Positions 1 through 36,629 of a DNA stretch of 49,975 nt are shown here, piece by piece. The DNA is from an uncultured Anaerolineae bacterium (GTDB lineage: Bacteria; Chloroflexota; Anaerolineae; JAFGEY01). Under the pieces are notes generated by a model. It saw only the letters and a list, made by a program, of their open reading frames with translations, searched no databases and had not been told where the DNA came from. The translations under genes were made by a program, and so were the position numbers. Every line of letters starts with the position of its first letter. The first letter of the stretch is position 1. The stretch spans positions 1-49,975 of the forward strand of contig CAYZYE010000005.1 of the NCBI GenBank assembly GCA_964481205.1, written 5' to 3'.

Positions 1-201
1 GGTGAACTCGGTCAGCGGCTCGAAAACGCCCAACACGTACACGTCCAGATCGTCGCCATCCGGCGCGGGGCAGCCCGGTACAAAGCCATAGTTGACCGGG
101 TACCAAATATCGTACCGGGGGTGCTTGCTTCCCAGCGGCCGGTCGATCCGGCAAGCGACCATTTTATTCAAAAAGGTTATCGACGGTTTGTACGAATCCA
201 T
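1..201 (-). CDS. inorganic pyrophosphatase family protein (5' part; runs off window start)
   Basis: Manual translation from ATG at 201: MDSYKPSITFLNKMVACRIDRPLGSKHPRYDIWYPVNYGFVPGCPAPDGDDLDVYVLGVFEPLTEFT; contains the YPVNYG...DGDxLD PPase signature. Not in the ORF track. Confidence 0.8.
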   Translation of the reverse strand, partial: MDSYKPSITFLNKMVACRIDRPLGSKHPRYDIWYPVNYGFVPGCPAPDGDDLDVYVLGVFEPLTEFT

Positions 202-223
202 TCAACTCTTGAAAGACTCTAGC

Positions 224-425: not shown

Positions 426-1832
426 TTAGGGGCCGGCGACAATCTGTGTAAAATAGTTCGCTATGGCCTCAAAGTTGAGACCGCCGAACAGGATGGCGGA
501 CGCCAGGATGAGCAAGGCGGCAAGCGACTCCGCGGCGATTGGCGTGGACGGCTGTTCCGGCGTGCTATCCTGGCACATCGCGGCGATCCATCGCCCGCTC
601 GACAGCCAGGCCGCGCACAGCCCGACCATAGTCGCGCCGATGCGCCAGCGATTGCCGTCTGCGGCCGCGATCTGGAAAAAGCGCCACACCCCCAGCGCGC
701 CCGCCGTCGGCGGAGCGCCGGCCAGGCTGAGCAGGCACAAGATGGCGACTGCGGCGACCCAGGGATGCCGGCGGCGCAAAGCGGCCAGATCGCCGAACGA
801 CGCGCCCGGATCGAGCGCCGTGATCACCGTTCCGAGGCCGAGCAGCCCGGCGCTGCCGCCGAACAGTGTATAAAACACGAGACCCCAGCCATCGGCCTGA
901 CCACGTTGGAACGCTGCAACCAGGACAATGATCGACAGCCCCGGCGTGGTCAAGGCGATACCCCGCAAGACGTCGCCGGGCGTGCGCGCGCGCCAGGCGA
1001 CGAGGTGCCCTGTTCCAAAGAGCAGTGTACCCAGGATGGACAGCAAGGCGAGGTGCGGGGCGTACAGCACGCCGACCAAACGGCCCAGCGCCGCGATCGC
1101 CGCCCCGGAGAGGATTGTCGCCCGGAGCAGCCCCAGCGGCGCGCCCGACGCTTTATCGCCGGGGCGCGGGCACAGTATGCCCAGTGGAATGAGCACTCCC
1201 CCCAGGATGAGGCCCAGCCCCAACAGGGCCAGCGGGTTTGACTCGCCGCCCGGTTGCGAATTCAACCGCTCCGCCATCAAGTTGAGGAACCAGGCGCCGG
1301 TCGCGCCGTAGAGCAGCGCCGCGCCAAATAAAAAATGCCCCAACCCGACGCCGTGGACGACAAAATACCGCCAGGCGACGTTGGCGCCGCTCAAGGCGTC
1401 GAGCGCCAGATAGAGCATCGCCAGGCCGAGGAGCAGCGACAGCAAGTGTGTGGCTCGAGCGACGACCATTGCGCTGGTCACACCCAAGAGAATCAACGCC
1501 AGGTCGCTGCCGCGCCGAGGTCGCGCCGGGGTCGCTTCCCGCCCCAACTCGATCAAGATGGAAACCACACTGACGCTGCAAAAAAAGAGCGTCCACAGTG
1601 TGCCGGGGCCGTCGCCGATCAGCATCCCTTGCACCGAACCGCCCTGACCGCTAAACAGCACGATCAAGTCCAACGCCGGCGCGACAACGAGGCCGGTCAG
1701 GGCAAGCCAGGCCAATCGCTGCGCCCCGACGCCCCACAGGTCGAGCAACAAAACGCCAATTGCCGCGCCAACCAGGATCAGCATTGGGATTAAATTTGCC
1801 ATTTGGAGAGGCATTGTGGGCATGTTGAACAC
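426..1832 (-). CDS. nuoN: NuoN-like antiporter-type membrane subunit, highly divergent
   Basis: 468 aa, polytopic, LSLAGAPPTAG motif, last gene of the nuo order; catalytic Glu/Lys appear absent. Confidence 0.8.
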   Translation of the reverse strand: MFNMPTMPLQMANLIPMLILVGAAIGVLLLDLWGVGAQRLAWLALTGLVVAPALDLIVLFSGQGGSVQGMLIGDGPGTLWTLFFCSVSVVSILIELGREATPARPRRGSDLALILLGVTSAMVVARATHLLSLLLGLAMLYLALDALSGANVAWRYFVVHGVGLGHFLFGAALLYGATGAWFLNLMAERLNSQPGGESNPLALLGLGLILGGVLIPLGILCPRPGDKASGAPLGLLRATILSGAAIAALGRLVGVLYAPHLALLSILGTLLFGTGHLVAWRARTPGDVLRGIALTTPGLSIIVLVAAFQRGQADGWGLVFYTLFGGSAGLLGLGTVITALDPGASFGDLAALRRRHPWVAAVAILCLLSLAGAPPTAGALGVWRFFQIAAADGNRWRIGATMVGLCAAWLSSGRWIAAMCQDSTPEQPSTPIAAESLAALLILASAILFGGLNFEAIANYFTQIVAGP

Positions 1833-1844
1833 TCGCTTGGGTTT

Positions 1845-3290
1845 TTACCAGAAACTGTTTTGAATGCCGGCGTGAATCTCGGCCCCAAGCCGGCGGATCG
1901 ACGGGCCAATGGTGTCTGAAAACCACTGCGGGCGCAGACCGATGATCAGCAGGGCGACGAGGATGGGGAGCGCGAGCGCGGTTTGCGTCGTCGGCGGGGT
2001 GTCCTGGCGCGCGCGCGGCCAGGCGCGGGCCAGCGCCCACGCGCCGATCAGCAGCCCGGCGGCGATCACGCCGTACAAGCCCCAGTCTAGCGCCACATTG
2101 ATCGCTGGCGCGACGTCGGCCTGCCAATGCCAGCGCAGCATGCCGAGTACGAACAAGAGTTGGCCGGCGAATCCGGCCAGGCCGGGGATGCCGATCAGGG
2201 ATGCAAAAGCCGCCCAAGACGCCGCCCGCCCTGTTCCTTGCCGGGGGTCAGAATGGCATATCCACAGCGCGGCCAGCCCCAGCCCGCGCGCCACAAAGGC
2301 GATGACGGCGCCGTGGATGCTCAAGGCTTGCAGCATAAAAATGCCAATCAGCCCCAGCCCCATCTGGGCGACATGCCAGTAGGCCAGCGTTTCATCCAAA
2401 GAGTCGCTGGCGGCCGAGGCAAAGGCGCCATAGAGCAGCCCGGCCGCGCCCAGGACGATCATTGCCGGCGCAAAGCTGGCGGCGGCCAGTGGAAAAAGGA
2501 GCAGGCAAAAACGGATCAGCCCATAGCCGCCCAGGCTGGTCAGCAGGCTGTAGGCGAGTATTTTGGTCGCGGCCGGCGCGTCGCGCTGCGCGTCGGTCAA
2601 CCCGATGTGAAATGGGAACGCTGCGCCAGTGATCAACATTGCCGCCGTCAGTGTCCAAAACATCCAGGCTTGCGCGGGCCAGTCCGGCATTGCCTCGCCG
2701 GCGAAACCGGTTTGTTCTGCCAACAAACCGGCAATGACGACCGCGATCGCGATCGCCGCGCTGACGGCGGCGATTCCCAGGAGCGCGGTGTTGGGCCGAG
2801 ATTTCGTTGAACGTTGAGCATCGTTGTTGAACAAAAAGAACATGGACAACATGGCGATCAGCCAAAAGGCAAAGAACAAGACCAGGTTCAGCGCGGTCAG
2901 CGCGCCCAGCGCGCCCGTCTCGAACACCAGGATCGAAACTGCTTGTCCCTTGTCGAGCTGCGCCCAGGCGAGCAGCAAGGCAAGCGGCGTCAGCAGGGCG
3001 GTCATCATCACCAGGTGCAGGTTGATGCCGTCGATGCCGAGGTAATAGTCGATCCCCAGCGTGGGCGACCACGCCAGCGGCCCATCGACAAACTGCCGGG
3101 GCGCAGCGTCGTCATCGCTCCAGCCCATGTATAAAAAGAGCGCGATGAACAGGCAGGCGGCCGCGGACAAAAAGGTCAGCCAGCGCCAGACCTCGCGCCG
3201 CCTGCCTGGGATCATGGCCGCGACGACGGCGCTCAGAGCGGGCAAAAAAACGATCAAGGTCAAGAGCGGGAAGCCACCCAATTGGTTCAT
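1845..3290 (-). CDS. nuoM: NuoM-like antiporter-type subunit, divergent (start MNQLGGFPLL)
   Basis: LGIDYYLGIDGI, FPFHIGLTDAQRDAP, GGYGLIRF and IPGLAGFAG motifs; ATG at 3290 overlaps the nuoL stop (ATGA). Confidence 0.85.
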   Translation of the reverse strand: MNQLGGFPLLTLIVFLPALSAVVAAMIPGRRREVWRWLTFLSAAACLFIALFLYMGWSDDDAAPRQFVDGPLAWSPTLGIDYYLGIDGINLHLVMMTALLTPLALLLAWAQLDKGQAVSILVFETGALGALTALNLVLFFAFWLIAMLSMFFLFNNDAQRSTKSRPNTALLGIAAVSAAIAIAVVIAGLLAEQTGFAGEAMPDWPAQAWMFWTLTAAMLITGAAFPFHIGLTDAQRDAPAATKILAYSLLTSLGGYGLIRFCLLLFPLAAASFAPAMIVLGAAGLLYGAFASAASDSLDETLAYWHVAQMGLGLIGIFMLQALSIHGAVIAFVARGLGLAALWICHSDPRQGTGRAASWAAFASLIGIPGLAGFAGQLLFVLGMLRWHWQADVAPAINVALDWGLYGVIAAGLLIGAWALARAWPRARQDTPPTTQTALALPILVALLIIGLRPQWFSDTIGPSIRRLGAEIHAGIQNSFW

Positions 3291-4330
3291 TCCTGAAGCC
3301 TCGTTTCTGCGGTTTGGTTGGACCGTTTGCGATGCGCGCGACCGGCGAGGCGGCTTTCCAACCGGAGCAGATATTGCCCCCCGCGCAGCGCCGTTTTGGC
3401 GATTGCATCGCCGAGTCCATTGAACAAACCTGGCAACCGCCAGGCGCGCCGGGATCGCCGGGCAACAAAACATCCGATGTATATTGCCGTCCATAGCGCC
3501 CACAGCGCCCCGTACCAGGCAACCGGAGGCGGCGCGGGCCGAGTCTCGGTCAGCAAGGGATAGATGCGCGCGAGCAAGAGCATACTGCTGGACGGGACGA
3601 CCCAGAGCGCGATCAGCGCGCGCCGGGGGCCGGCCCGAAATGAGTATTGTGTCGCGCGGGCCAACACGCCGGCCAGCGCGCAAATGACAATAATTGTCTG
3701 CGCGGTGTGGAGGGGCAGCAGCCGTTCCGGGGCCAGGGTCGCAGAACCAAGATGGTCGATCGATGCCGAGGCAAATGTTTGATCGATCATTGCCGTCGCC
3801 AGCAGCAGACAAAGGTCTGCGCCCAGCGAGGCGATGGGCGACGATGCACGCCGTGAACTCGACGTCCACATGATCCACCCACTCAGCGACCAGCCCAGCA
3901 GCAAGACCCAAAAGTTGTCGGCAAACTCGAGCAGCAGCAAAATAGCCAGCGCGCCATTCAGACGGGCGAGGGTGCGGCGGCGGGAGCGCGCTGTGGCGCT
4001 GCGCGCGACATAGAGGTGGATGAACAGCCCAACGGCGACGGTGGTCGAGGCCGCGAGGATCGAGATGGCGTCTACTCTGAGCCGGAGGGCGATTTGAATA
4101 AAGGCGGCGCCCGACCACACTCGCAGCCAGGGCAGCGCCACAGATCGTCCGACCAGACCGGGTTCGATGATCTGGCCCCACAACAGCGGCATAATGATCA
4201 AGCCCGCGCCCACGACCGCGCCGCAAGCGACCCAGTTTTGCAACCGGCGTGTGAGCCGGTGGCCGATCAGCCCGTTGATCGACGCGCCGATCAGGGGCAG
4301 TAGGATGGGCAGCCACTCGATGTACTTCAT
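3287..4330 (-). CDS. nuoL: NuoL-like subunit, shortened to 347 aa
   Basis: N-terminus matches NuoL (LPLIGASINGLIG, LRVDAIS, VGLFIHLY, ADNFWVLLLGW); position between nuoK and nuoM; about half the usual length. Confidence 0.75.
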   Translation of the reverse strand: MKYIEWLPILLPLIGASINGLIGHRLTRRLQNWVACGAVVGAGLIIMPLLWGQIIEPGLVGRSVALPWLRVWSGAAFIQIALRLRVDAISILAASTTVAVGLFIHLYVARSATARSRRRTLARLNGALAILLLLEFADNFWVLLLGWSLSGWIMWTSSSRRASSPIASLGADLCLLLATAMIDQTFASASIDHLGSATLAPERLLPLHTAQTIIVICALAGVLARATQYSFRAGPRRALIALWVVPSSSMLLLARIYPLLTETRPAPPPVAWYGALWALWTAIYIGCFVARRSRRAWRLPGLFNGLGDAIAKTALRGGQYLLRLESRLAGRAHRKRSNQTAETRLQE

Positions 4331-4332
4331 TT

Positions 4333-4611
4333 TTAGCTGTTCTCACCCGGCCTGGAAACCGGGTACGTCAGGGCCAGGGCCACCCCAACCGCCAACTCGA
4401 TCACGGCGATGGTCAGAATGACCAGTGTGATCACCTGGCCTTCCCAATTTTGAAACCAGCTCGCCAGCGAGGCCAGGGCCAGGTTGGCGGCGTGCAAGAT
4501 CAACTCGACGCCCATCAGGATGATCAGCGGGTGCTTGCGCACGGCGACGATCATGACGCCGAGGACAAACAAAAGCATACTCGAAAATAGATAATGGTAC
4601 GGAGTGATCAT
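4333..4611 (-). CDS. nuoK: NADH-quinone oxidoreductase subunit K
   Basis: 92 aa, 3 TM segments, LFVLG..RKH..MGVEL..EGQV..IEL.VG; both conserved Glu present. Confidence 0.9.
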   Translation of the reverse strand: MITPYHYLFSSMLLFVLGVMIVAVRKHPLIILMGVELILHAANLALASLASWFQNWEGQVITLVILTIAVIELAVGVALALTYPVSRPGENS

Positions 4612-4624
4612 GTATGATCCTCAC

Positions 4625-5167
4625 TCAAGAATCTCGCGCCGATCTCGACAACCGGGCCACGATCACCAGCCCGATCAGCAAGAACAGCCCGATCAGTTCA
4701 AAAGGAACGAGGTTGTTAGCCAGCAATTCCTGGCCCAGCGCCGGGATGTATTCTCCCTGGACGGCCCACAGCGGGGGTGATTGGAGAACGGCGGCGCCAA
4801 TGCGCCCCCGGACGATCGCCCAACCGGCGACGGCCGCCAAGATCAAGGCGAGCGGCACAAAGACGAGCAGTCTGGCGAGATTTGGCCGCACCGGGGCTGT
4901 TGTTTTCGGGGACTCGGGGCGCGTCGGTTGAGCGGCGAGGTCGAAACGTTTTGCGCCCCAGATCAGGGCGCTCCCGCTCAAAAAGCAGAAAAAGAGTTGG
5001 AGCGCGGCCAGAAATGAGGCATCGAGGAGAAAATAGAGTCCGGCCAGAGCGGTGATCGAGAGCAAAAACGCACAGATGCCGGGTATGATTTTTTTCAAAA
5101 GCAGCACGCCGGCCGCGCCGGCGAGGGCCAGCGCAACCAGTGGGACGAACAGGATGGTCACGATCAT
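4625..5167 (-). CDS. nuoJ: NuoJ-like subunit, divergent (start MIVTILF)
   Basis: Hydrophobic 180 aa; LYFLLDASFLAALQ and LGQELLANNLVPFELIGLFLL match NuoJ; ATGA overlap with nuoI. Confidence 0.8.
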   Translation of the reverse strand: MIVTILFVPLVALALAGAAGVLLLKKIIPGICAFLLSITALAGLYFLLDASFLAALQLFFCFLSGSALIWGAKRFDLAAQPTRPESPKTTAPVRPNLARLLVFVPLALILAAVAGWAIVRGRIGAAVLQSPPLWAVQGEYIPALGQELLANNLVPFELIGLFLLIGLVIVARLSRSARDS

Positions 5168-5481
5168 GATCCGGTCTCCCTGGTTTGGAGCGCGTGTTCT
5201 GGGCAGACCAGGACGCAGATGGCGCAGTGCATACAGCGTTGGATGTCGATGCGGATCGCGGTCTGACCCTGAATAACGATGCAGTGAGTGGGGCATGCGT
5301 CCACGCAGCGCCGGCATGCCGTACATCGCGTTTGGCCGTCATCGTCCTCGCGCAGCGCCGGCGGGCCGCGAAAAGGCAGCGTTGATGGCGCGGCAGGTGG
5401 TTTTTGGATGCCGCGTCGCCAGACGAGGCGCATCGCTTGCCCAAGTTGGATGAGGTGGTTCAAATAGCTATCAATGGACAT
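5164..5481 (-). CDS. nuoI: NuoI-like 2x[4Fe-4S] subunit (start MSIDSYL, 105 aa)
   Basis: FRGPPAL...CTACRRCVDACP and CMHCAICVLVCP ferredoxin motifs. Confidence 0.85.
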   Translation of the reverse strand: MSIDSYLNHLIQLGQAMRLVWRRGIQKPPAAPSTLPFRGPPALREDDDGQTRCTACRRCVDACPTHCIVIQGQTAIRIDIQRCMHCAICVLVCPEHALQTRETGS

Positions 5482-5486
5482 GTTGT

Positions 5487-6350
5487 TCAACGTGTCGCGA
5501 TCAGCGCCGTGACGATCAGGTTCAACGCGGATAGCGGGATCGCGATTTTGAAAACGGTTTGGACATGTTTGTTCGAGACGGCAGGCGGCAGCGCGGATCG
5601 CGCCAGCGTCCACACCAAGGCGATCAGCCCTACCTGGAGCGTCGTGTACAAGACGGCCAGCCACGGGACTCGGTCGACGAACGGCCCGCCGCCTCCGCCC
5701 ATAAAGAGCGCGCTCGTCAACAGGGCGCGGTTCAAGGTCAATGCTTGGCCGCTCCAACCGGCCTGCGTCTGCGCAGTCCAGGCCGGAGGCCGGGCGCAGA
5801 TGAGCCACAAGAGAAACGCCGCCGGTTGTCGCCAGGCGAACCAGCCCAGGCCGTTCCATTTTCGCTGCGCCTCGAGCCAGGCCGTCAGTCGCAAACTGCC
5901 GGGTTTTACGGCCAAAAGCAAGCTCAAGACGATGAGTAGCATGGGGATCGCGTTGACAAGATGCGTTTCCAGGGTGGAATGGTGCGCGTTCCACCTTGCC
6001 TCGCCTTGTTTTTTGAGCGGGAATTCGGCGCGCGCGATCAGGATGGCCTCGCCGGCCCATTGCAGGGCCAGCGCGTAGAGCAGCGCCGCGCTGCTGTCGC
6101 CCGGCAGCCGCCAGGAGGACGATTGCGGCGCGGACAGGTTGGCCGGCGCAAGTGGAATGACCGCGCCGGCCAGTAACGCGACAACGATGACCGGCCAATC
6201 CCGGCGGCTCAATCGAGGCGCAACCCGGCCGGCGGGGCGCTGATGAAAGCGTCCGCCCAGCCATTGCTCCCAAAAATGATGTCCAACCAGCAAGAGGACA
6301 TAAAACAGCAACCAGACGGCCAATTGGGCGATCCAGGCGGGGTTGTTCAT
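5487..6350 (-). CDS. nuoH: NuoH-like membrane subunit, strongly divergent
   Basis: 287 aa polytopic protein between nuoCD and nuoI; W..WRQP.AF, LF.GGG.GP and W-K..IPLS..NL-type remnants. Confidence 0.7.
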   Translation of the reverse strand: MNNPAWIAQLAVWLLFYVLLLVGHHFWEQWLGGRFHQRPAGRVAPRLSRRDWPVIVVALLAGAVIPLAPANLSAPQSSSWRLPGDSSAALLYALALQWAGEAILIARAEFPLKKQGEARWNAHHSTLETHLVNAIPMLLIVLSLLLAVKPGSLRLTAWLEAQRKWNGLGWFAWRQPAAFLLWLICARPPAWTAQTQAGWSGQALTLNRALLTSALFMGGGGGPFVDRVPWLAVLYTTLQVGLIALVWTLARSALPPAVSNKHVQTVFKIAIPLSALNLIVTALIATR

Positions 6351-7849
6351 TGCGCGGCCCCGGCAATCGAAATGTCCAGACTGTCCAGGATGAGTGGGAG
6401 GCGCGCGGCGGGCGTTCCTGCGGCGATCAGGGGCAGCATGGATAGGTTGGCCAGGGACGGCGCGCGAATGTGAGCGTACTGTAATCGATCGGCGCCGTTG
6501 GCGCAGAGATAAATGCCCAATTCGCCGCGCGCGCTTTCAATGGCGGCATATATCGCGCCGGCCGGCAAGGTTTGGGGAAGGGCCGGCTGCCGGGGGAGGG
6601 CGAAATGGTTGACCTCTCCCTGTTTCAGTTGGGTCAGCGTTTGCCGGATGAGGCGCAAGCTGGCCTCGATCTCGGCGACGTGGACCAGGTAACGCGCCCA
6701 GGCGTCGCCTGACTGTGCGGTTATGACCGGGACATCCAGCTCGTCATAACCGGAATAGGGCAAAGCGCGACGCACGTCATAGGATACGCCCGTCGCGCGC
6801 AGGCACGGGCCGGTTGCGCCCAGCCCCAGGGCCGTGCCGGGATCGATCACGCCAATGTCCTTCCAGTGCGAGCGAAACTCGGAACTTGAGGTCAAGAGGC
6901 GGTCGATATCGACCAACAAGGTGTCCAGGGGGGGCAGCAGCGCGGCCGGCGACAGGCCGGCGTCGAGATCGCGGGCCAGCCCGCCGATGGCGATAATGTC
7001 CGGGGTGATGGGGTTGCCGCCCAGGCGCTGAAAAAAATCGAGGATGGTTTGGCGTCCCTGCCACAGGTAAGAGATGACGGCCAGGTTTGCCCCGTACAGG
7101 TTTTGCACGCAGCGCGCCAACCAATAAAGATGGGAGGCGATCCGTTGCAGCTCGGCATAGATGACCCGCAGCTGCCGCGCTCGTCTCGGCGGCGTAACGC
7201 CAAGCAGTTTTTCGATGCCTAGCGCGTAAACCAGGTCCGTTTGCATCGCCGAAAACCCGTCCATCCGCGCGGTGAGCAGGATGGCGCGGTGGTAGGGCCA
7301 TTGGGTCAGTTTGTTTTCCAGGCCGATGTGCCTGTCGCCGAATTCGACCCGGATGCCGGCGACGCGCGCCTGGCGCTGTTCAATGTCAATGTGCCACCCC
7401 TCAAGGCTGGTTGGGCAGCGCGAGCCGATCTCCCACCGCGTCCAGGCCTGGCCTCGTTCATCCTGGGTGGACGCTTTTTTGAGCAGCGGGCGCGGGTCGG
7501 GATGCCCGTTGAATTCGATGCCCCACAGGTCGCGGGCGCGGCGTTCGCTCCAATTTGCGGCCGGCCAGACCAGGGCCAGGCTGTCCGGCGCGGGCGAGGT
7601 GTTGACGCACAGCCGCAGGCGCCGGCGGTGGGACAGTGACCCAAGTTGGTAGTGTATTTGCTGCGGCGCGCGGGCGGCCGTGAGCAGCAGGTCGTAGCGG
7701 GTTTCCGGCTCGTCGCGCAAAAATTCGGCGACCTGCCCCAGGTAGGCCGACTCGACGTGCAGCGCCGGATTGGCGTTTTGCGCCGCCAGCGTGAACGAGG
7801 CGTCGGGAAAGCGTGTTTTGAGCAGATCGACCAGGCGGCGCTCGCTCAT
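6347..7849 (-). CDS. nuoCD: fused NuoC/NuoD-like protein (start MSERRL, 500 aa)
   Basis: NuoC motif WPAANWSERRARDLWGIEFNGHPD; NuoD motifs IEKLLGV, AELQRIASHL, GPCLRATGV.YDVR, ESARGELG, IRAPS..NL; ATGA overlap with nuoB. Confidence 0.9.
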   Translation of the reverse strand: MSERRLVDLLKTRFPDASFTLAAQNANPALHVESAYLGQVAEFLRDEPETRYDLLLTAARAPQQIHYQLGSLSHRRRLRLCVNTSPAPDSLALVWPAANWSERRARDLWGIEFNGHPDPRPLLKKASTQDERGQAWTRWEIGSRCPTSLEGWHIDIEQRQARVAGIRVEFGDRHIGLENKLTQWPYHRAILLTARMDGFSAMQTDLVYALGIEKLLGVTPPRRARQLRVIYAELQRIASHLYWLARCVQNLYGANLAVISYLWQGRQTILDFFQRLGGNPITPDIIAIGGLARDLDAGLSPAALLPPLDTLLVDIDRLLTSSSEFRSHWKDIGVIDPGTALGLGATGPCLRATGVSYDVRRALPYSGYDELDVPVITAQSGDAWARYLVHVAEIEASLRLIRQTLTQLKQGEVNHFALPRQPALPQTLPAGAIYAAIESARGELGIYLCANGADRLQYAHIRAPSLANLSMLPLIAAGTPAARLPLILDSLDISIAGAAQ

Positions 7850-8280
7850 AGCGCGCTCCGGTGCGTTTTTTGCCGTGACAGGTTCGACAGGGCGTGGTAC
7901 AGCGCGTTGGGGTGCGGCGGGCAGCCGGCGATCCGGGCGTCGACGGGGAGCAAATGTTCGACGGCAATGGTGTCGAATATGGCGCCCGAGATGGCGCATA
8001 CGCCGTAAGCGATGACCCACCTGGGTTGGGCCAACTGTTGGTACAGCGCGTCGAGGTGCGGGCAGATCGCCGGCGATATGCGCCCGGCGACGATGAGCAG
8101 GTTGGCCTGGGCGGGAACCAGGTCGTATGCGCCGCCGTCGACGGCGGGCCAGCCGGGGCCGAGGGTAGCCAGTCCGCAGCAGCCCAGATCGAGCAGGAGG
8201 GGACGGATCGCCGGTTGGGCGACGTTGATCTTGCGACGTTGCTGCATTTTGCGCCGGGGCTTGGAAGGCGAGGCGATCAT
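7846..8280 (-). CDS. nuoB: NuoB-like Fe-S (N2) subunit (start MIASPSK, 144 aa)
   Basis: LGCC, LIVAGRI, VIAYGVCAISG and GCPPHP; all four N2 Cys ligands present. Confidence 0.85.
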   Translation of the reverse strand: MIASPSKPRRKMQQRRKINVAQPAIRPLLLDLGCCGLATLGPGWPAVDGGAYDLVPAQANLLIVAGRISPAICPHLDALYQQLAQPRWVIAYGVCAISGAIFDTIAVEHLLPVDARIAGCPPHPNALYHALSNLSRQKTHRSAL

Positions 8281-8315
8281 TTTGGCTGGCTCCGATCGAG
8301 CTGGGGCAGAAAAGG

Positions 8316-8582
8316 TCATTCGGCGTTTTTGAAAATATAGAACACGCCCGCCGCGAGTAAAGTCACAAACAGGGCAGCGGCGGTGAGGGCGCGTTTTTGG
8401 GCGACCGCGGGCAGGCCGGCCCATGGCAAGAGCCACACCAGGCCCGCCAGGATCAACACGGCCATCAATGTCCAGGGCGGAAAAGGCGTTGCGTCGGTTT
8501 GCCGGTGTGCGTCCTGAAAAAAGCGCCACATTGCCGGCAGCGCGATGCAGGATAACAGCGTCAGGGTGAAAAATATGGTCAT
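8316..8582 (-). CDS. nuoA: NuoA-like subunit, divergent
   Basis: 88 aa, 3 TM segments, LLPWA and G.FYIFK end motifs; first gene of the operon. Confidence 0.65.
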   Translation of the reverse strand: MTIFFTLTLLSCIALPAMWRFFQDAHRQTDATPFPPWTLMAVLILAGLVWLLPWAGLPAVAQKRALTAAALFVTLLAAGVFYIFKNAE

Positions 8583-10545: not shown

Positions 10546-11511
10546 TTACTCCCAATCTCGTTCTGCCTGGGCATAGAGCTGGTACCGATAAAAAGGCACG
10601 CGCGGGATGCGCAGTTCAAAGCGTACCCAGGTGTTGGGTTCGATGTCTTGTTGTGGGACGAATGTCGCTCCCAGGCTGACAATGTGCCCGCTGGCGTCTT
10701 GGAGCACTCCGGCCACGCTAATGTTTTTGATCTTGAACGGGTTGTTGTTGGCGGCGCGCCCGACCACGCGCACGCTGTCGGCGCTGTCATAGTAAAAACC
10801 AATGTTGCTCAATACGATTGTGGCCGACTCGCGTCCGGTTGGCCGGCCGTCGGGGTGCAGGACAAAGGATTTGACGCGCCGCGCCGCGATTTCGACGCGG
10901 AATGGACATTCTTCGCCGGGGCCGAGCAGCAGGAACGGAAATTCGACGTCGATGGGGCCGTGCCTAAAGTCTTGATCGTCAAAGAATGTGGCGTTGACGC
11001 CCACCGCTTCATACGTTTCGGCGCTGTCGTTGCGGGCAATGCCGGTGACGAGATAGGTGCTGTTTTCTCCGGCGCGGTTGGCGCTGACGATCAGCGTGAT
11101 CGGCGGGCCAGGGTCCTGGTCTTTGATTCTGGTCATGGCCGGTGTGGGGGTTTGCACCGGCGCTGGCGTTGCCGGCGGCCGAGTCGGCGCGGGGGTGGGC
11201 GTTTGGGTTGGCGTTTCGGTCGGCGTGGGTGTTTCGGTAGATGTTGGACCGAGCGTCGGCGTGGCGGTGGGGGTCGGCGTGGCGGTTGGGAATGGGGTAT
11301 AGGTGGGCGGAGGGGTGTAGGTGGGATAGGGCGTATAGGTTGCCGCCGGCGGCGCGTCGTTTTGTTTTTCGACGACGATGCGCGTCACTTGGACCTCGCG
11401 AATGACTTCTTGGGTGACGATCACGGTCTTGGGTGTGGCGCAAGAGGCCAACAATGGCATGGCGATCGCCAGGAGGGCAATGTGGATCGTGACGGCGAAT
11501 GTTTTTTTCAC
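10546..11511 (-). CDS. lipoprotein with Pro/Thr-rich linker and two FxLYD-like beta-sandwich domains
   Basis: Lipobox LLASC; (PT)n low-complexity tract; two repeats of the form V.G..RN...V.V.A.F.D..G. Confidence 0.7.
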   Translation of the reverse strand: MKKTFAVTIHIALLAIAMPLLASCATPKTVIVTQEVIREVQVTRIVVEKQNDAPPAATYTPYPTYTPPPTYTPFPTATPTPTATPTLGPTSTETPTPTETPTQTPTPAPTRPPATPAPVQTPTPAMTRIKDQDPGPPITLIVSANRAGENSTYLVTGIARNDSAETYEAVGVNATFFDDQDFRHGPIDVEFPFLLLGPGEECPFRVEIAARRVKSFVLHPDGRPTGRESATIVLSNIGFYYDSADSVRVVGRAANNNPFKIKNISVAGVLQDASGHIVSLGATFVPQQDIEPNTWVRFELRIPRVPFYRYQLYAQAERDWE

Positions 11512-14017: not shown

Positions 14018-14488
14018 CTATTTCCACGACAGGTTGCGATGTCGCAATTTGAATGACAAGTCAGCGGCGAGGTTACGCATCACTTTGTAGCCGATGTCTG
14101 TGTCTTTTTCACATAATGCGATAAACTCATCGCGCCGGATGACATACAATTCGGTCCCGTTGGACGTACATTCGACGGTGGCCGACCGTGGCCCCATGTC
14201 AATGAGCGCCATTTCGCCAAAGATTTGCCCTTGCCCCAATGTGATCAGCGATGTTGGCCCCGGCGCCGATAGCGTTTCGGCTGTGACCGCGGCGCTTCCA
14301 ATGCTGACCTGGGCGTTGCCTTGATGGATGATATAGATTTCGTCACTCGGTTCAAACTCGCGGACAATGATGTCGCCTGCGTTATAGACCTTGTTTTCAC
14401 AAATCGAGGCGATACTTGCGAGTTGTTCGGCAGAGAGGCCGTACAGGATTTCCACCCGTTTCAAAGAGTCGACTGTAATCATTGTCAC
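14018..14488 (-). CDS. stand-alone cyclic nucleotide-binding domain protein
   Basis: GQIFGEMALIDMGPRSATV cNMP cassette; no HTH. Confidence 0.9.
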   Translation of the reverse strand: MTMITVDSLKRVEILYGLSAEQLASIASICENKVYNAGDIIVREFEPSDEIYIIHQGNAQVSIGSAAVTAETLSAPGPTSLITLGQGQIFGEMALIDMGPRSATVECTSNGTELYVIRRDEFIALCEKDTDIGYKVMRNLAADLSFKLRHRNLSWK

Positions 14489-14573
14489 TCCCTTTCTTGA
14501 GCAAGCGTGAGGTTACTCGAACAAGCAGTTACATTTTACCATAAATTGCTTATGCTGGGCAAGTTTTGGTCGT

Positions 14574-16439
14574 TTAGGCATACTCGCGTACCCAGGCGAT
14601 GTCCAGTTCGGCCAGTTTGGCCTCGGTGGGCTGACCGCTGTCTGGGTCCCAGCCCATCATGCCATAGTACAGTTTTCGCGCCTGGTCGAGTGTTTCCGGC
14701 ATGACCGGCTTTTCGTTCAGGGTTTTGGTTTTGTGGTAGGCAGCGACGCGCGGCGGGAGCACGTCATCGGCTTTGCTCAGACCCTCGCGCAGGTTAAAGA
14801 CGCGCGCCATGGTCACGCCGCGTTCTCCGGCCTTGATCAGTTCCCAGACGTTTGTTTTCCACCCGGTGATGGCGCGGATCAGCTGCACGATTTGATCGCG
14901 CGACCAGGGGACAAACATGCAGCAGCAGATGTGGTTGTTGATCCAGGCCCAATTGGTCGAGATGGTGTAGGCGCGCACTTTGTGCGCGTTGAGTTCGGTT
15001 TGCGGCACCGATTCGTAGAGGCCCAGGCTTTGCATATCTTCGCCCAGCGGGTTTTGCGCCAGGCCGCCATCCCAAAAGTTGTGCATATGATCGGCGCCGG
15101 TGGGCGAAACGGCATATCCCAGGGCCTGGCCGTGGCGCGTGCGACATTCGTGCATGGGGAACGGCTGCTTTTTGACGTCGAGGACAAAGGCGCGGGCGGC
15201 GTCGCCGATCTTGTCGGCGGCGCGAGTGGGGCCTTGGGCCAGCAGGTCGCCCAGCCCTCGACGTTCGCAGATTTGCCGCGTCAGTTCGACCATTGCCGCT
15301 CCGTTGCCAAAGTTCAGGGCCAGGCCGCCGCTATCTTGGGTGTTGAGCAGCCCGTTCTCAAAACATTCCATGGCAAAAGAGACGGTCATCCCGGTCGAAA
15401 TCGTGTCCAGGCCATAGGCGTTACAAAGTTCGTTGGCCTTGGCGATCGCGCGCAGGTCATCGACGCCGCAGTTGGAGCCAAACGCGCCGACGGTTTCGTA
15501 TTCGGGGCCGCCGTATTGCGGATCGACTTGATAGTCTTTGTCGTCGACCGCGACCACGCGCTTGCAGCGGATGGGGCAGGCGAAACAGCCGCCCCGGTCG
15601 ATCAAAATGGTGTCGCGCATGGCCTCGCCGCCGATCTTGGCCGCTTTCTGAAACTGGCCATCTTGAAAGTTGCGGGTGGGCAAGGCGCCGATCTCGCTGA
15701 GGCCGAGCAGTCCGCCGCAAGTGCCCAGGTCGTGCATACCCCAGGCTTTTTCTTTCCAGTTTTGCGCCATCCATTTAGCCAGCGCTTTGAGCGCGCCGGC
15801 GTCGGCCAGGGGGACGGGGGTGTTGCCTTTGGCGGCGACGCATTTGAGGTTTTTCGACCCCATCACTGCGCCCATGCCGGTGCGGCCGGCGGCGTGTTTG
15901 AGGTCATTGATCACGCAGGCATAGCGCACCAGTTTTTCGCCGCCCGGCCCAATCATGGCCAGACGGGCGCGTTTTTCTCCCAACTCGGCGCGCACGGCTT
16001 TTTGGCATTCCAGCGTGGTCATTCCCCACAGGTGGCCGGCCGGGCGGATTTCGACCTGGCCGTGGTTGATCCACAGGTAAACCGGCGTGGGCGACTTGCC
16101 ATAGATGACGATCGCGTCAAATCCGGCGTGTTTGAGTTCGGCGCCGAAAAAGCCGCCCACGTCGGCCTCGCCATAGCCACCGCTGAGCGGCGACTTGGCC
16201 CCGACGGCGCTTCGCCCGGCCCCGGCGACGGCGACGCCGGTGAGGACGCCGGTCGCAAAAATCAGGACATTGTCGGGGCCAAGGGGGTCGGCGCCGGCGG
16301 GTACGTGTTTGAGTGTATAGTAGCCGATAAAGCCGTTTCCGCCGAGGTAGCGCCGGTAAAAGCTCTCCGGCGGTTCTTCGATGTTGAACGTGCCTCGAGT
16401 TAAATCGACATGCAAAATTTTACCAGTGTACCCATTCAT
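14574..16439 (-). CDS. aor: aldehyde:ferredoxin oxidoreductase (tungstopterin family)
   Basis: KSPLSGG, AGRTGMGAVMGSKNLK, CFACPIRC, GPEYET, GLDTISTG; AGGAGG RBS. Confidence 0.93.
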   Translation of the reverse strand: MNGYTGKILHVDLTRGTFNIEEPPESFYRRYLGGNGFIGYYTLKHVPAGADPLGPDNVLIFATGVLTGVAVAGAGRSAVGAKSPLSGGYGEADVGGFFGAELKHAGFDAIVIYGKSPTPVYLWINHGQVEIRPAGHLWGMTTLECQKAVRAELGEKRARLAMIGPGGEKLVRYACVINDLKHAAGRTGMGAVMGSKNLKCVAAKGNTPVPLADAGALKALAKWMAQNWKEKAWGMHDLGTCGGLLGLSEIGALPTRNFQDGQFQKAAKIGGEAMRDTILIDRGGCFACPIRCKRVVAVDDKDYQVDPQYGGPEYETVGAFGSNCGVDDLRAIAKANELCNAYGLDTISTGMTVSFAMECFENGLLNTQDSGGLALNFGNGAAMVELTRQICERRGLGDLLAQGPTRAADKIGDAARAFVLDVKKQPFPMHECRTRHGQALGYAVSPTGADHMHNFWDGGLAQNPLGEDMQSLGLYESVPQTELNAHKVRAYTISTNWAWINNHICCCMFVPWSRDQIVQLIRAITGWKTNVWELIKAGERGVTMARVFNLREGLSKADDVLPPRVAAYHKTKTLNEKPVMPETLDQARKLYYGMMGWDPDSGQPTEAKLAELDIAWVREYA

Positions 16440-16481
16440 TTTTTTCCTCCTGTTGGCTTACGCTTGGTCGGGTGGCGACGA

Positions 16482-18011
16482 TCATTGGATGAATGACCAG
16501 GGCAGCGGCGTGTTTTCATCTCGAACCGGGTTGGCGGCGAGGTCGATCTCGCATTTTTCCAGGGCCTGACGCCACGCTTTGGACGACGTGCCCTGTAGCG
16601 CCGTCAGGACGCGCCCGATGCGGCGGTCGCCGCGCGCCAACAGCCCCTGAATGACCGCCCACCTGGGGCTTTCGCCTTTGAGCGCAATGTGTTGTCGTTT
16701 GAGTTGCGCGTCGAGTCGCTTGAGCCGCGCGTCGAGCACGGCGGTGGGCGTCATTGTGACGCGCTGAAATGGAGTGTGCGCCTTGGGTACAAATGGCGTC
16801 ACGTTGGCCGTGATTTGGCCGGGAAAACGGGCCGCGACCTGGGCGCACAGTTGGGCGATGGCGGCAATGTCATGGTCGGTCTCGGTGGGCAGGCCGATCA
16901 TAAAATACAGTTTGAGTCGTCGAAACCGGTGGTGCGCGGCGCGTTCGGCGGCGTGGAGCAGGTTGGTTTCGGTGACGCCTTTGCGGATCGAGCGCCGCAA
17001 GCGTTCGCTGCCGGCTTCGGGGGCCAGGGTCAATGTTTGCGCGCCGCTTTCGGCCAGCGCTTGCAGCAGCGATTCTGACAGGGGCGCGACTCGGAGCGAC
17101 GACACGGAGAGCCGCGCGCCCAGCGCCCGCAGTTTGGAGACCAGCTCGTCGATCGGCGCATAGTCGGACACGGCGGCGCCGACCAGCCCGATTTTGTTGC
17201 GCTGCGTCAGCCCATATTTGGCCTGTTCCAGGATCGACTCGACGCTGCGCTCGCGTTTGGGGCGCGTGGTGAACCCGGCGAGACAGAATTGGCACCGGCG
17301 GCTGCACCCGCGCGAAATTTCGATCAGGTGCATATCGCCAAATTCGGCGTCGGGGGTGTGAATGACCGTCGAGGTCGGGTGATCGTCCAGGCGGCGCACC
17401 CATTGGCGCGTGACCGGTGGTGGTTCTGCGCCGGGGTGGAGCTGCGGCGCGTATACGCCGGGGATTTGCCCCAGCGCCGACCACAACAACTCGCGCGGTT
17501 GGGACGCATTTTCGATCAGCGTCTCGACGAGTGGTTCGAGTACCGGTTCGATCTCGCCGATGACAAAGGCGTCGATCAGGTCGGCCAACGGCAAGGGGTT
17601 GGCCGAAACGGCCGGCCCGCCGGCGATGACGAGCGGCCAGTTTTGGTCGCGTTCGCCGGCGCGCAGGGGGATTTTGGCCTGACGCAGCGTTTGCACCACG
17701 TGCGCATAATCCATCTCGAACGAGATCGAAAAGGCGATCACCCCAAAATTGCCGATCGCGCTTTGGCTTTCGATGGATACGATCGGGGCGCCGGGTTTGC
17801 GGTGCGGCTGCCAAAAGGCGCGTTCGCAAACGATGTTCGGGTAAGCGTTGAACAGGCGGTAGACGGTTTGAAAGCCCAGGCTGGACATGCCGACGCGGTA
17901 CGTGTTGGGATAGACCAGGGCGACCGGCAGTTTGCCGCCCCAGTCCTTGATCACGACGCCATGCTCGCGCGCCAGGATGCGGCGCGCGTGTTCAATGTAT
18001 GACCATTTCAT
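16482..18011 (-). CDS. radical SAM protein with N-terminal B12-binding-like domain
   Basis: EISRGCSRRCQFC (CxxxCxxC); YPNTY.VGMSSLG; LAPEAGSERLR; YFMIGLPTE. Confidence 0.9.
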   Translation of the reverse strand: MKWSYIEHARRILAREHGVVIKDWGGKLPVALVYPNTYRVGMSSLGFQTVYRLFNAYPNIVCERAFWQPHRKPGAPIVSIESQSAIGNFGVIAFSISFEMDYAHVVQTLRQAKIPLRAGERDQNWPLVIAGGPAVSANPLPLADLIDAFVIGEIEPVLEPLVETLIENASQPRELLWSALGQIPGVYAPQLHPGAEPPPVTRQWVRRLDDHPTSTVIHTPDAEFGDMHLIEISRGCSRRCQFCLAGFTTRPKRERSVESILEQAKYGLTQRNKIGLVGAAVSDYAPIDELVSKLRALGARLSVSSLRVAPLSESLLQALAESGAQTLTLAPEAGSERLRRSIRKGVTETNLLHAAERAAHHRFRRLKLYFMIGLPTETDHDIAAIAQLCAQVAARFPGQITANVTPFVPKAHTPFQRVTMTPTAVLDARLKRLDAQLKRQHIALKGESPRWAVIQGLLARGDRRIGRVLTALQGTSSKAWRQALEKCEIDLAANPVRDENTPLPWSFIQ

Positions 18012-20521: not shown

Positions 20522-20595
<74 letters not shown>

Positions 20596-20607: not shown

Positions 20608-21561
20608 TCATTCGGTATACCTCTGCAATGTCCCTCTGGCCGTTTCCTGGACGCGCGCGACGAGTTCGGCAGGTTCCAGTACCCTGGCTTGAGCGCCATA
20701 GCTCAACACCCATCCGGTCGCCCAGTCGAGCGTGCTTTGCCCAAAGTGCGCCGTCAGCGAGCCGTCGGCGTGATCCTCGATGCGCATCCAGTGCCCGTAT
20801 CGTTCTCTGACCTGAGCGGCGGCGGCGACCCCAATCTGTACTTTGACCCAATAATTGGGTTCAAAATGCCTGGTGCGGGCCATATACTCGCGCACGTCAA
20901 AGTCGCGCGGCATCGCAAAGCAGTCTTGTACCGGCGTAATGTTTTGGATGCGATCGATGCGAAAGGTGCGCAAATCCTGGCGCAAACGGCAGTATCCCAC
21001 CAGGTACCACAGTCCCCATTGCAGCGTGAGCGCATAAGGCTCGACCACGCGCTCGGTTTGCTTTAGGCCAAAACTTTGATATTGCAGGCTGATGCAGCGC
21101 CGGTTGGCGATGCACTCGCGCAAGGTGTGGATCGCCTGTTCCCAGGGGCGATAGTCCCGCGCGGTCAGGCCGGAGACGAACAGGCTTTGCCGCGCTTGAG
21201 CCACTTGATGGCGCAGGTCGTCGGGCAGGACGTTGTCCAGTTTGGCTGTGACCGAGGTGACGGCGTCGTTGTAGGTTTGTCCCCATACCTCCCGGATCAG
21301 GTTGGCGCCCATATAGAGCACCGTCGCTTCCTCGGCGGTAAAGATGAGCGGCGGCAGTTTGTAGCCGCGCAGCAGCGAAAAGCCGCCATACGGGCCTCGT
21401 TCAGAGTAAATGGGGATGCCCATTTCTTCGAGCATGGCGATATAGCGATGTACGGTTCGCTCGGAAACGTTCAACTCTTTTTTGAGTTCGGAGGCTTTCC
21501 ATCTGGCGCGCGATTGCAGCAGCAAGATGAGTGAAAGCAGGCGTGTGGCAACGTTGCTCAC
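20608..21561 (-). CDS. YafY-family HTH-WYL transcriptional regulator
   Basis: GTG start with GGAAGGAG RBS; RLLSLILLLQ..VSERTVHRYI..L..MG; WYLVGYC.LR.DLRTFRIDRI. Confidence 0.93.
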   Translation of the reverse strand: MSNVATRLLSLILLLQSRARWKASELKKELNVSERTVHRYIAMLEEMGIPIYSERGPYGGFSLLRGYKLPPLIFTAEEATVLYMGANLIREVWGQTYNDAVTSVTAKLDNVLPDDLRHQVAQARQSLFVSGLTARDYRPWEQAIHTLRECIANRRCISLQYQSFGLKQTERVVEPYALTLQWGLWYLVGYCRLRQDLRTFRIDRIQNITPVQDCFAMPRDFDVREYMARTRHFEPNYWVKVQIGVAAAAQVRERYGHWMRIEDHADGSLTAHFGQSTLDWATGWVLSYGAQARVLEPAELVARVQETARGTLQRYTE

Positions 21562-21670
21562 AAATGATCTCCTTCCAGCGGGTGATTGGTTGGCATAGAC
21601 CTGGTTATTATACCACAAAATCTCGACACAAAGTGACATCATTTCACAGCCGGTGGTTGCAGGGATTGTT

Positions 21671-25185: not shown

Positions 25186-25216
25186 TGGGGTGTCCTTTGT
25201 GTTTTTGTCTGGCCGG

Positions 25217-30481: not shown

Positions 30482-30508
30482 GAACAGAGGCTCCTTTTTG
30501 ATGTTGTG

Positions 30509-32512: not shown

Positions 32513-32524
32513 AGGAGTCAAATT

Positions 32525-33802: not shown

Positions 33803-33965
33803 TGAGGGGCATCATACTGCCGGCCAACGCGGAAAATTGGGCAAAATGTAAATTGCAATCCGTCGGGCCAGTTTCTTGGGAGCAATTCAAGTCCGGTGGT
33901 GATACGATCTGGGTTTACTTGGCTGCTTGAGGATTGCTTCAGGTGCAAAAGGTGTGCCTTTGCAA

Positions 33966-34138
33966 TAGGGCTGTTCAATTCTAATTTGTGACTAAAGTCA
34001 CCGCTGGCGGGCCAAAGCCGGGCGTTCCACCTGCGTGGACGCCGCCGCTGGTGGGGACTCGTCGCTGTAGAGGGACGACCAGCCAACGGCTCGCCAAACG
34101 CGGTTTCAACCGCTGGGTTGTAGAATTGAACAGCCCTG
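33966..34138. mobile_element. 173-bp MITE, 18-bp TIRs, 10-bp TSD (ISAs1-like ends)
   Basis: TAGGGCTGTTCAATTCTA / TAGAATTGAACAGCCCTG (17/18 complementary); GCCTTTGCAA duplicated at 33956-33965 and 34139-34148. Confidence 0.88.
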
Positions 34139-34205
34139 GCCTTTGCAATGACATTATCGTAGGGGGGCTGGTTGGGGTGTGGTGGCGATGCCAGTTTGAC
34201 ATGGA

Positions 34206-36593: not shown

Positions 36594-36629
36594 ACCACGC
36601 GGCGCGTACCTCGGAAAGGAATCCCATCC

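Follow-up and report, generated by a model that had tools for sequence, protein, structure and literature searches.

The 49,975-nucleotide stretch of DNA from an uncultured Anaerolineae bacterium analysed here, referred to as the window, contains an operon in which homologues of all 11 core subunits of complex I are encoded together, and which, judged from sequence comparison, is part of a small conserved family of Anaerolineae complex I paralogues and not a one-off dying cluster. The reading preferred here, held tentatively and with somewhat less than even confidence, is that the operon encodes a non-pumping, membrane-anchored Fe-S electron-transfer module derived from complex I with a putative donor and acceptor. 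A repurposed, non-pumping complex had been suggested in an earlier note on this DNA, and this suggestion gains support from substitutions fixed throughout the family, from dN/dS ratios well below 1 and from invariant motifs specific to the family.

All genes of the operon are located on the minus strand between positions 8582 and 426 in the order A-B-CD-H-I-J-K-L-M-N, with zero internal stops in the ten open reading frames. ATGA overlaps couple five gene pairs, A/B, B/CD, CD/H, I/J and L/M, the first of which is additional to the four counted in the earlier note. The canonical nuo order, the uninterrupted reading frames and the absence of nuoEFG had been recognized correctly; NuoE/F/G were absent from the 50-kb window upon tblastn with E. 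coli NuoE/F/G and NuoE/F-like proteins, and no second nuo operon was detected anywhere in the window by the same program. B, CD, H, I, J, K, L, M and N are Nuo homologues according to Pfam and NCBIfam, with nearly all subunits scoring far below the curated NCBIfam cut-offs and one NuoK model scoring above. Residues were compared by MAFFT with 33-41 canonical sequences, by hhalign and by HMMER against T. thermophilus, the canonical comparison set comprising more than 30 operons.

The subunit set and fold of the Q-module and of the membrane arm are retained. Ligands are kept for three [4Fe-4S] clusters, N2 in NuoB and N6a and N6b in NuoI, with 12 of 12 cysteines present in the window, and the conservation of Fe-S ligands, gene order and translational coupling proposed previously holds. 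NuoB (8319-7846; 157 aa; PF01058, 60 bits; NF005012, 88 bits with a cut-off of 116) possesses all four N2 cysteines (CC, C, CPP), which are kept in 13/13 family sequences, and has lost 16 of 19 conserved charged/His/Tyr positions together with the canonical N-terminal region. NuoI (5481-5164; 105 aa; Fer4 families; TIGR01971, 41 bits with a cut-off of 113) is a minimal 2x[4Fe-4S] ferredoxin core without inter-cluster insert and C-terminal extension, in which all eight cysteines are found, as in 8/8 aligned NuoI proteins of the family.

In the fused NuoCD (7849-6347; 500 aa; PF00329 and PF00346; NuoD model NF004739, 245 bits with a cut-off of 360), Tyr87 (T. thermophilus numbering) is replaced by Gly198, the quinone partner Asp139 by Asn and His169 by Thr282, while the beta1-beta2 loop is devoid of His, with GPQHPxxHGV changed to G-S-R-C-P-T-S-L-E-G. 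The quinone Tyr/His are missing in 13/13 NuoCD proteins of the family and present in canonical Anaerolineae NuoCD encoded at other loci (approximately 32% identity). Despite the loss of the quinone ligands the predicted fold of NuoCD is intact, as the AF2 model (pLDDT 88.8, pTM 0.91) matches E. coli NuoCD in Foldseek with a TM-score of 0.89.

Among the membrane subunits, NuoA (8582-8316; 88 aa, three transmembrane (TM) segments) shows zero Pfam/NCBIfam matches and is recognizable solely through profile-profile alignment, whereby the family profile aligns with the canonical NuoA profile over TM2-3 at an hhalign probability of 74%; its location upstream of nuoB is conserved among relatives and its PW motif is retained, while the canonical Asp79/Glu81 are missing. 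NuoH (6350-5487; 287 aa) is matched by Pfam only in its C-terminal 75 aa, yet is a full-length homologue with an hhalign probability of 100% against the canonical profile, in which gaps mark deletions of the TM1-2 and TM5-6 loops. All of its E-channel acids are lost and 3/27 conserved charged/His/Tyr positions are kept; the Lys equivalent to E. coli 274 is conserved in 10/11 relatives. In NuoJ (5167-4625; 180 aa; PF00499) the TM3 motif YAGA is replaced, with Tyr59 changed to Leu. NuoK (4611-4333; 92 aa; PF00420; NF004320, 66.6 bits, above the cut-off of 57) is the least altered membrane subunit and retains Glu36, Glu72, Arg25 and Lys26 in the window; across the family, Glu36 is found in 6/12 and Glu72 in 9/12 sequences.

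Among the antiporter-like subunits, NuoL (4330-3287) is truncated; with 347 aa compared to approximately 600-615 aa in canonical proteins it spans TM1 to about TM9, displays seven TM-like segments and ends in an Arg-rich basic tail. TM10-16 and the lateral helix HL are gone, and the partial NCBIfam NuoL matches align only positions 4-233 of 615-630. Glu144 is replaced by Ser and Lys229, conservatively, by Arg, Asp178 is kept and the remaining key positions are absent; full-length NuoL with HL and TM16 is encoded in relatives (L003, L004, L169). NuoM (3290-1845; 481 aa; TIGR01972, 195 bits with a cut-off of 264), with about 12 TM segments in a crude hydropathy scan, has Glu144 changed to Leu, Lys234 to Thr, Lys265 to Ser and Glu407 to Gln, and NuoN (1832-426, GTG start; 468 aa; TIGR01770, 83 bits with a cut-off of 333) has Glu133 changed to Ala, Lys217 to Pro, Lys247 to Ser and Lys395 to Val. 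All four key charged residues of both M and N are lost in 6/6 loci, and the key-residue loss in NuoM extends to 23/23 library representatives of the family. In H, M and N combined, 19 of 84 charged conserved positions are retained versus 82 of 178 other conserved positions (Fisher p = 0.0002).

The earlier impression that almost every mechanistic residue is substituted is largely upheld, the losses being real by MAFFT, hhalign and HMMER, but Glu36/Glu72 of NuoK and Asp178/Arg229 of NuoL remain. Its statement that topology is kept fails on the shortened NuoL without lateral helix and on the missing loops of NuoH, and the designation 'intact' applies to the open reading frames but not to NuoL.

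With these substitutions, the complex would be unable to act as a redox-driven proton pump. A still energy-converting quinone reductase, which would operate with non-canonical residues at shifted positions or with another coupling ion or path, could draw on the conserved NuoK Glu36/Glu72, NuoL Asp178/Arg229 and NuoH Lys, as well as on two His newly invariant in TM segments of NuoM. It is nevertheless highly improbable, as conserved Lys/Glu residues at or near TM5, 7, 8 and 12 of L/M/N, the displaced charges that the earlier note had named as a refuting outcome, are absent from the family, and as Leu, Ala, Pro and Val are among the residues that replace the canonical ones. NuoH is likewise without its TM5-6 loop, none of the E-channel acids is left, the quinone Tyr/His are gone, and relatives do without whole antiporter subunits. 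A residual ion path is conceivable because the two NuoK glutamates and the two NuoM histidines remain.

The search for orthologous degenerate operons proposed earlier retrieved the same substitutions in approximately 46 NuoCD clusters, with 41-54% identity to the window NuoCD, and in 23 NuoM clusters (50%-identity clusters); the named organisms among the sources are all Anaerolineae (Chloroflexota). NuoCD of the family is characterized by the motifs R-[YF]-P-[TS]-S-x-[DE]-G-L, of which the beta1-beta2 loop of the window, S-R-C-P-T-S-L-E-G-W, is a divergent variant, and R-x-D-G/A-[FAS]. A neighbour-joining tree resolves the family as a monophyletic group with a long stem, in which the window NuoCD is nested, and places it on the Nuo side of HycE. 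Consistently, the best PDB sequence match of the family profile is T. thermophilus Nqo4 (326 bits), ahead of MBS (MbsL, 235 bits), FHL (HycE, 186 bits) and MBH (MbhL, 168 bits), and the NuoD part is matched by NuoD, FpoD and NdhH models of NCBIfam only. No description of this family was found in the searchable literature. It is proposed here as new under the term charge-less Nuo paralogues of Anaerolineae, defined by the NuoCD motifs, the retention of the N2 ligands and the replacement of every key residue of L/M/N by a neutral one, features by which the window operon is assigned to it.

Operon genes show dN/dS ratios of 0.13-0.62, typically 0.2-0.4, M and N included, such that every gene is, by this estimate, under purifying selection and far from neutral. 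Constraint is relaxed, though, because these ratios exceed those of canonical nuo genes (0.02-0.18) and, within the same genome pairs, those of the flanking lar genes (0.08-0.17), with dN, and likewise dN/dS, about 2-3 times that of the flanking genes. In relatives, subunits have been lost independently. NuoL is shortened in the window and at locus L088 and absent from L168, L-M-N are absent from L008, I-M-N are absent from L002, L005, L089 and L171 with an L stub left, and L001 apparently contains A-B-CD only. The core A-B-CD-H-J-K is present at nearly all loci, and the antiporter module is, as far as gene content tells, dispensable in relatives. In a reduced subclade the operon adjoins a divergent cluster coding for response regulators, NuoE/NuoF-like proteins, an ACT protein and a histidine kinase.

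The elevated dN, the repeated and independent truncation or loss of L, M, N and I, the apparent A-B-CD remnant and the rarity of the family, with 2 carriers among 185,579 species representatives, would suit a relic in slow decay, that is a redundant paralogue whose function was lost long ago and which disintegrates piecemeal under weak residual constraint, for example the avoidance of toxic misfolded membrane proteins, without any positive role. This explanation is considered improbable. The ten reading frames are intact in the window, at least 10 other lineages with saturated synonymous sites (dS > 1) likewise carry an intact operon, the dN/dS ratios are low for each gene, and the 12 Fe-S cysteines and the ATGA coupling are preserved. 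Moreover, charge-less NuoM occurs in 23 distinct clusters, and among 35 NuoCD sequences 43 columns are invariant, including family-specific motifs at the former quinone site. Of the early decay envisaged in the earlier note, relaxed constraint and repeated loss of antiporter subunits stand, but decay in one genome with dN/dS near 1 is refuted by ratios mostly of 0.2-0.4 and by the many Anaerolineae clusters with the same substitutions.

For the electron-transfer module preferred here, electrons would enter at NuoI from a soluble donor and proceed to N2 in NuoB. Ferredoxin is the obvious candidate donor, because NuoEFG is absent and a ferredoxin-dependent AOR is also encoded in the window. Exit would be to an acceptor, perhaps other than a quinone, that would bind non-canonically in the remodelled NuoB/NuoD pocket bearing the family motifs. 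At most, the antiporter-like subunits would serve as a structural anchor, and they are probably being shed. Entry through NuoI cannot be universal, as one subclade lacks this subunit.

The dispensability of NuoI in the reduced subclade, together with the regulatory genes and the histidine kinase next to its operon, is also compatible with a non-catalytic scaffold or an N2-based redox sensor which signals to other proteins without net turnover, and so are the absent input module and the unrecognizable acceptor site. Such a role is judged unlikely: the regulatory neighbourhood is missing from the window and most other loci, a Pfam search detected no sensor output domain fused to subunits of the operon, and the retention of three Fe-S clusters along with the strong conservation of the NuoD pocket suits catalysis equally well or better.

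With respect to known systems, the operon shares the same 11 core subunits, the gene order and the ligands of N2, N6a and N6b with canonical complex I (T. thermophilus Nqo, E. coli Nuo), and the fused NuoCD with the E. coli and Aquifex enzymes, but lacks NuoEFG, the quinone-site residues Tyr87/His38, Asp139 and His169, the Lys/Glu axis of L/M/N, the cavity loops of NuoH, the E-channel acids and the lateral helix of NuoL. Cyanobacterial/plastid NDH-1, archaeal Fpo and NuoEFG-less bacterial Nuo consist of the same subunits A, B, C, D, H, I, J, K, L, M, N as the operon encodes, they too are without the NADH-oxidising module, and delivery of electrons to NuoI by a ferredoxin-type donor is plausible. 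These enzymes retain the quinone/methanophenazine site and the pumping residues, and alignments show quinone-site and pumping residues also to be kept in the canonical Anaerolineae operons at loci L091-L094, whereas the charge-less family has neither.

The loss of ancestral catalytic ligands from the large subunit is shared with Ehr, a member of the complex I/group 4 hydrogenase superfamily (Marreiros et al., 2013, as summarised in PMC6349859 and PMC4758237), one of these summaries grouping Ehr with group 4 [NiFe] hydrogenases and presuming its Mrp-like subunits to be ion-translocating (PMC6349859). Membership in Ehr was rejected, as profile comparison and neighbour-joining tree place the family with NuoD and not with HycE or MbhL, and as its antiporter-like subunits are charge-less and not of the ion-translocation-competent Mrp type; the presence of nuoA, nuoJ and nuoK, arranged as in nuo operons, further distinguishes the family. 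In MBS of Pyrococcus (PDB 6u8y), on the other hand, the NuoD homologue is without NiFe and quinone ligands and the substrate is reduced at the proximal [4Fe-4S] cluster (PMC7684303). By analogy, the Tyr-to-Gly change beside N2 would expose the cluster as in MBS, which differs in its functional Mrp-type ion-translocating subunits and gene organisation. A rather doubtful extension of these observations is that the family constitutes a new functional class in which, in parallel to MBS but independently of it, the NuoB/NuoCD/(NuoI) Fe-S module would catalyse non-quinone redox chemistry or sense redox state directly at an exposed N2, anchored by a vestigial membrane arm and without ion pumping; in one subclade, it may cooperate with neighbouring nickel-pincer (Lar) or 2-hydroxyacid genes. 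If true, this would provide a natural experiment in which all coupling residues are gone and assembly is preserved.

Coupling in complex I has usually been dissected with point mutants. Here evolution has stripped an assembled-looking 11-subunit operon, under selection in dozens of lineages, of its quinone ligands together with the E-channel and the whole charged axis, all at once, and the relatives form a graded series in which antiporter-like subunits are lost stepwise. If expressed, such complexes would reveal the capabilities of the complex I scaffold without pumping, separate the parts required for assembly from those required for catalysis and show how respiratory machines become repurposed or dismantled. 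Family genes are annotated in their sources as ordinary NADH-quinone oxidoreductase subunits, and reconstructions of Anaerolineae metabolism from metagenome-assembled genomes may therefore wrongly infer respiratory energy conservation.

The region 426-8582 consists of ten adjoining minus-strand open reading frames free of internal stops, encoding proteins like NuoA (8582-8316, 88 aa), NuoB (8319-7846, 157 aa), a fused NuoCD (7849-6347, 500 aa), NuoH (6350-5487, 287 aa), NuoI (5481-5164, 105 aa), NuoJ (5167-4625, 180 aa), NuoK (4611-4333, 92 aa), NuoL (4330-3287, 347 aa), NuoM (3290-1845, 481 aa) and NuoN (1832-426, 468 aa, GTG start). ATGA stop/start overlaps join A/B, B/CD, CD/H, I/J and L/M, five junctions rather than the four counted in an earlier note. 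Pfam and NCBIfam assign B, CD, H, I, J, K, L, M and N to their Nuo subunits, and all scores but that of one NuoK model fall far short of the curated NCBIfam cut-offs (245 versus 360 bits for NuoD, 35 versus 305 for NuoH, 49 versus 556 for NuoL, 83 versus 333 for NuoN); NuoA is detectable by profile-profile alignment only, with a probability of 74%. Within the 50-kb window, tblastn recovered neither a second nuo operon nor a match to NuoE, NuoF or NuoG, in agreement with the earlier reading that nuoEFG is missing. In a promoter/terminator scan of the operon region, promoter matches equal the shuffle expectation and terminator-like matches lie within coding sequence. An AT-rich spacer of ~210 nt separates the nuoN stop from a soluble inorganic-pyrophosphatase-like gene (1-215, minus strand), which begins at about 215 and continues beyond position 1 of the window.

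The window proteins and their close relatives were aligned with canonical nuo operons, comprising loci from two collection scans and the E. coli K-12 nuo operon. In NuoCD, Gly198 aligns with the quinone ligand Tyr87 of T. thermophilus (RMDG versus RMDY in Nqo4, HMMER alignment), the beta1-beta2 loop GPQHPxxHGVLR has become G-S-R-C-P-T-S-L-E-G-W and is devoid of His, Asp139 is replaced by Asn, and His169 corresponds to Thr282. NuoH matches the canonical profile over its full length (hhalign probability 100%), has lost the TM1-2 loop (GLLQPxADxxKL..KE) and the TM5-6 loop (AExNRxPFDLxEAExEL..EYSG), and keeps 3 of 27 canonical conserved charged, His or Tyr positions. NuoA is without Asp79/Glu81, and NuoJ without Tyr59 and the YAGA motif. 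Among the antiporter-like subunits, Glu144, Lys234, Lys265 and Glu407 of NuoM are changed to Leu, Thr, Ser and Gln, Glu133, Lys217, Lys247 and Lys395 of NuoN to Ala, Pro, Ser and Val, and Glu144 of NuoL to Ser. As the flanking motifs FW-E, PFH, GYGL-R and PG-GF-G align cleanly, these are true substitutions and not misalignments. Across H, M and N, conserved charged, His or Tyr positions are retained more rarely (19/84) than other conserved positions (82/178; Fisher p = 0.0002).

The look-alike operon with intact reading frames and lost mechanistic residues described in the earlier note is thus borne out by alignments, hhalign and HMMER; the loss holds for D, H, A, J, L, M and N and fails for NuoK, whose Glu36 and Glu72 remain. 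In NuoL, Asp178 is kept and Lys229 is conservatively replaced by Arg. The topology, described as kept in the earlier note, is not fully preserved, with two loops gone from NuoH and NuoL truncated to approximately TM1-9 plus an Arg-rich tail, the lateral helix being absent. That the key residues are present at shifted positions was rejected upon MAFFT alignment against 33-41 canonical sequences, comparison of hhalign profiles and a scan for charged residues conserved in the family, that is the window operon and its charge-less relatives in Anaerolineae, which found no compensating Lys or Glu. A pump that persists by use of non-canonical residues is considered very improbable. The sole new finds of the scan are two invariant histidines in hydrophobic segments of the NuoM-like protein (1845-3290, minus strand), His92 and His326, which occur in 6/6 family NuoM sequences and have no equivalent in canonical NuoM.

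Used as a HMMER query against all of 1.84 billion representatives, the window NuoM retrieved 23 family members, all of which (23/23) lack the four key charges, and directly below them the canonical EKKE pattern dominates. By an automatic alignment, several NuoM matches outside the family (P0147, P0153, P0165, P0167, P0198, P0215, P0256, P0261 and P0266) also lack some or all four key charges, so that other lineages may likewise have degenerate antiporter-like subunits.

The window complex is a descendant of complex I. The family profile scores highest against T. thermophilus Nqo4 (326 bits), followed by MbsL of MBS (235), HycE of FHL (186) and MbhL of MBH (168), and the confident AlphaFold2 model of the window NuoCD (pLDDT 88.8, pTM 0.91) superposes on E. 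coli NuoCD with a TM score of 0.89. A simple neighbour-joining tree built from the NuoD domain, with E. coli HycE as the root, shows the family as monophyletic on a long stem and apart from the canonical NuoCD of Anaerolineae, in which all key residues are kept. While Ehr complexes fall among the group 4 hydrogenases and presumably pump (PMC6349859, PMC4758237), the window family matches Nqo4 best, and membership of Ehr or group 4 hydrogenases is ruled out by profile scores and tree. Functional complex I is equally ruled out, as several of its defining features were looked for and are lacking.

The canonical quinone site, E-channel and antiporter charges are lost and the Fe-S ligands retained, as the earlier note had observed, with all four N2 cysteines in NuoB and all eight cysteines in NuoI present, in a family conserved under purifying selection. 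As judged from the sequence, the complex is most likely, if tentatively, a non-pumping, membrane-anchored Fe-S electron-transfer module with a donor at NuoI and an acceptor pocket by N2. A soluble donor would hand over electrons at NuoI, for which ferredoxin is a plausible, conjectural candidate as the window encodes a tungsten-type aldehyde:ferredoxin oxidoreductase (14574-16439, minus strand), and an equally conjectural acceptor would sit in the remodelled pocket adjoining N2; chemistry at the proximal cluster has a precedent in MBS (PMC7684303). A non-catalytic scaffold or sensor appears unlikely.

Relatives of NuoCD number ~46 in JGI, ENA, NCBI and Logan data, all fused proteins of ~500 aa at 41-54% identity and Anaerolineae in every case where the source names the organism, below which identity falls sharply to canonical NuoCD at <=33%. 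Alignment of 35 family NuoCD shows 43 invariant columns. The family is rare, as its carriers among GTDB species representatives are 2/185,579. MAGs with the family include GCA_016931365.1, GCA_964428175.1, GCA_053495155.1 and CAYVBK01, and JGI Ga0256846, 3300041077 and 3300061472 are among the source samples. The last 106 residues of the window NuoCD are encoded with 100% protein identity on a 1628 bp metagenome contig (L100, Ga0256846_1013841; tblastn, 3-320), by which match its JGI sample contains the same or a near-identical organism. Decay in a single genome or an assembly artefact is excluded by the relatives from these sources and this independent contig. The full-text literature searched yielded no account of a Nuo lineage without these charges, which, as its coverage is incomplete, is weak evidence of novelty.

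Nei-Gojobori dN/dS (own script) amounts to 0.24-0.32 at dS 0.4-1.0 for B, CD, H, J, K and the L stub of loci L002/L005, to 0.13-0.62 at dS 0.04-0.38 for L089/L171, and to 0.14-0.41 over all genes (M 0.26-0.28, N 0.31-0.41) for the remaining pairs, the majority, which are saturated at dS 1.0-2.2. Canonical Anaerolineae nuo genes give 0.02-0.18 and flanking LarA/B/C of the same genome pairs 0.08-0.17; in this control, Lar proteins are 71-84% and NuoCD 53-69% identical, the operon evolving 2-3 times as fast as its neighbours. Purifying selection on the operon is therefore real, yet relaxed. A relic in slow decay, to which the relaxation and not the persisting selection would conform, is deemed rather improbable.

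The relatives form a reduction series around a nearly constant A-B-CD-H-J-K part. Full operons with a NuoL of ~600 aa and its lateral helix are present in L003, L004 and L169; NuoL is truncated C-terminally in the window and absent from L168, which has M and N; L008 lacks L, M and N; L002, L005, L089 and L171 lack I, M and N and retain an L stub, after which comes a metallo-beta-lactamase-fold gene; and L001, a frameshift-prone assembly, possibly has A-B-CD only. The antiporter-like subunits are dispensable. Very divergent L/M/N downstream of nuoK in L008 were dismissed, the reading frames encoding a soluble 658-aa protein, an alpha-glucosidase and others, and no Nuo. NuoL of L088 (13699-15000, ~426 aa) differs from the C-terminally truncated window NuoL in having an apparent internal deletion, with TM1-9, TM15, lateral helix and TM16 kept.

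In one subclade, at eight loci (L004, L168, L169, L170, L088, L006, L090, L001), the operon strikingly lies inside a nickel-pincer cofactor (Lar) cluster (L004 7766-9052 and 18443-21509; L168 1258-5908 and 13927-18153), with larA divergent upstream, glycosyltransferase, larC, larB and larE genes convergent downstream, and often Ldh_2, HD and Amidohydro_2 genes. From one of these loci to another, Lar proteins share 72-85% identity, so that the organisms are closely related, with NuoCD at only ~50-59%; lar neighbours are also missing from the window, from L003 and L008 and from the reduced subclade. A functional link was therefore down-weighted, and the synteny may reflect shared ancestry. The reduced operons (A-B-CD-H-J-K-L stub; L005 2305-9306 and 14222-15127, L171, L089, L002) are followed by a Lactamase_B_2 gene. 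Ahead of them lie a radical-SAM gene and a divergent cluster in which four genes for response regulators stand with NuoE-like, NuoF-like, ACT-domain and histidine kinase genes.

With respect to the remaining window, the oxidoreductase gene adjoins genes for a radical-SAM protein (16482-18011, minus strand) and a cNMP-binding protein (14018-14488, minus strand), and the set at 14018-18011 points to anaerobic metabolism using ferredoxin. A rhamnose/deoxy-sugar utilisation cluster (31736-38634 and 45216-46709, plus strand) encodes a DeoR regulator, L-rhamnose isomerase, two URO-D-like proteins, class II aldolase, DUF4432 and FGGY kinase, with a sulfatase (23701-25251) and an MFS transporter (25217-26428) upstream. 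The sole tRNA gene (20522-20595, plus strand) adjoins an HTH-WYL-WCX regulator (20608-21642, minus strand). Two long reading frames of 809 and 578 aa (40072-42501, minus strand; 29651-31387, plus strand), without Pfam match and with a comparatively low third-position GC of 0.64, may be spurious or novel. A predicted lipoprotein (10546-11511, minus strand) combines a long Pro/Thr-rich linker of PTxTPT repeats with a weak DUF3426 match.
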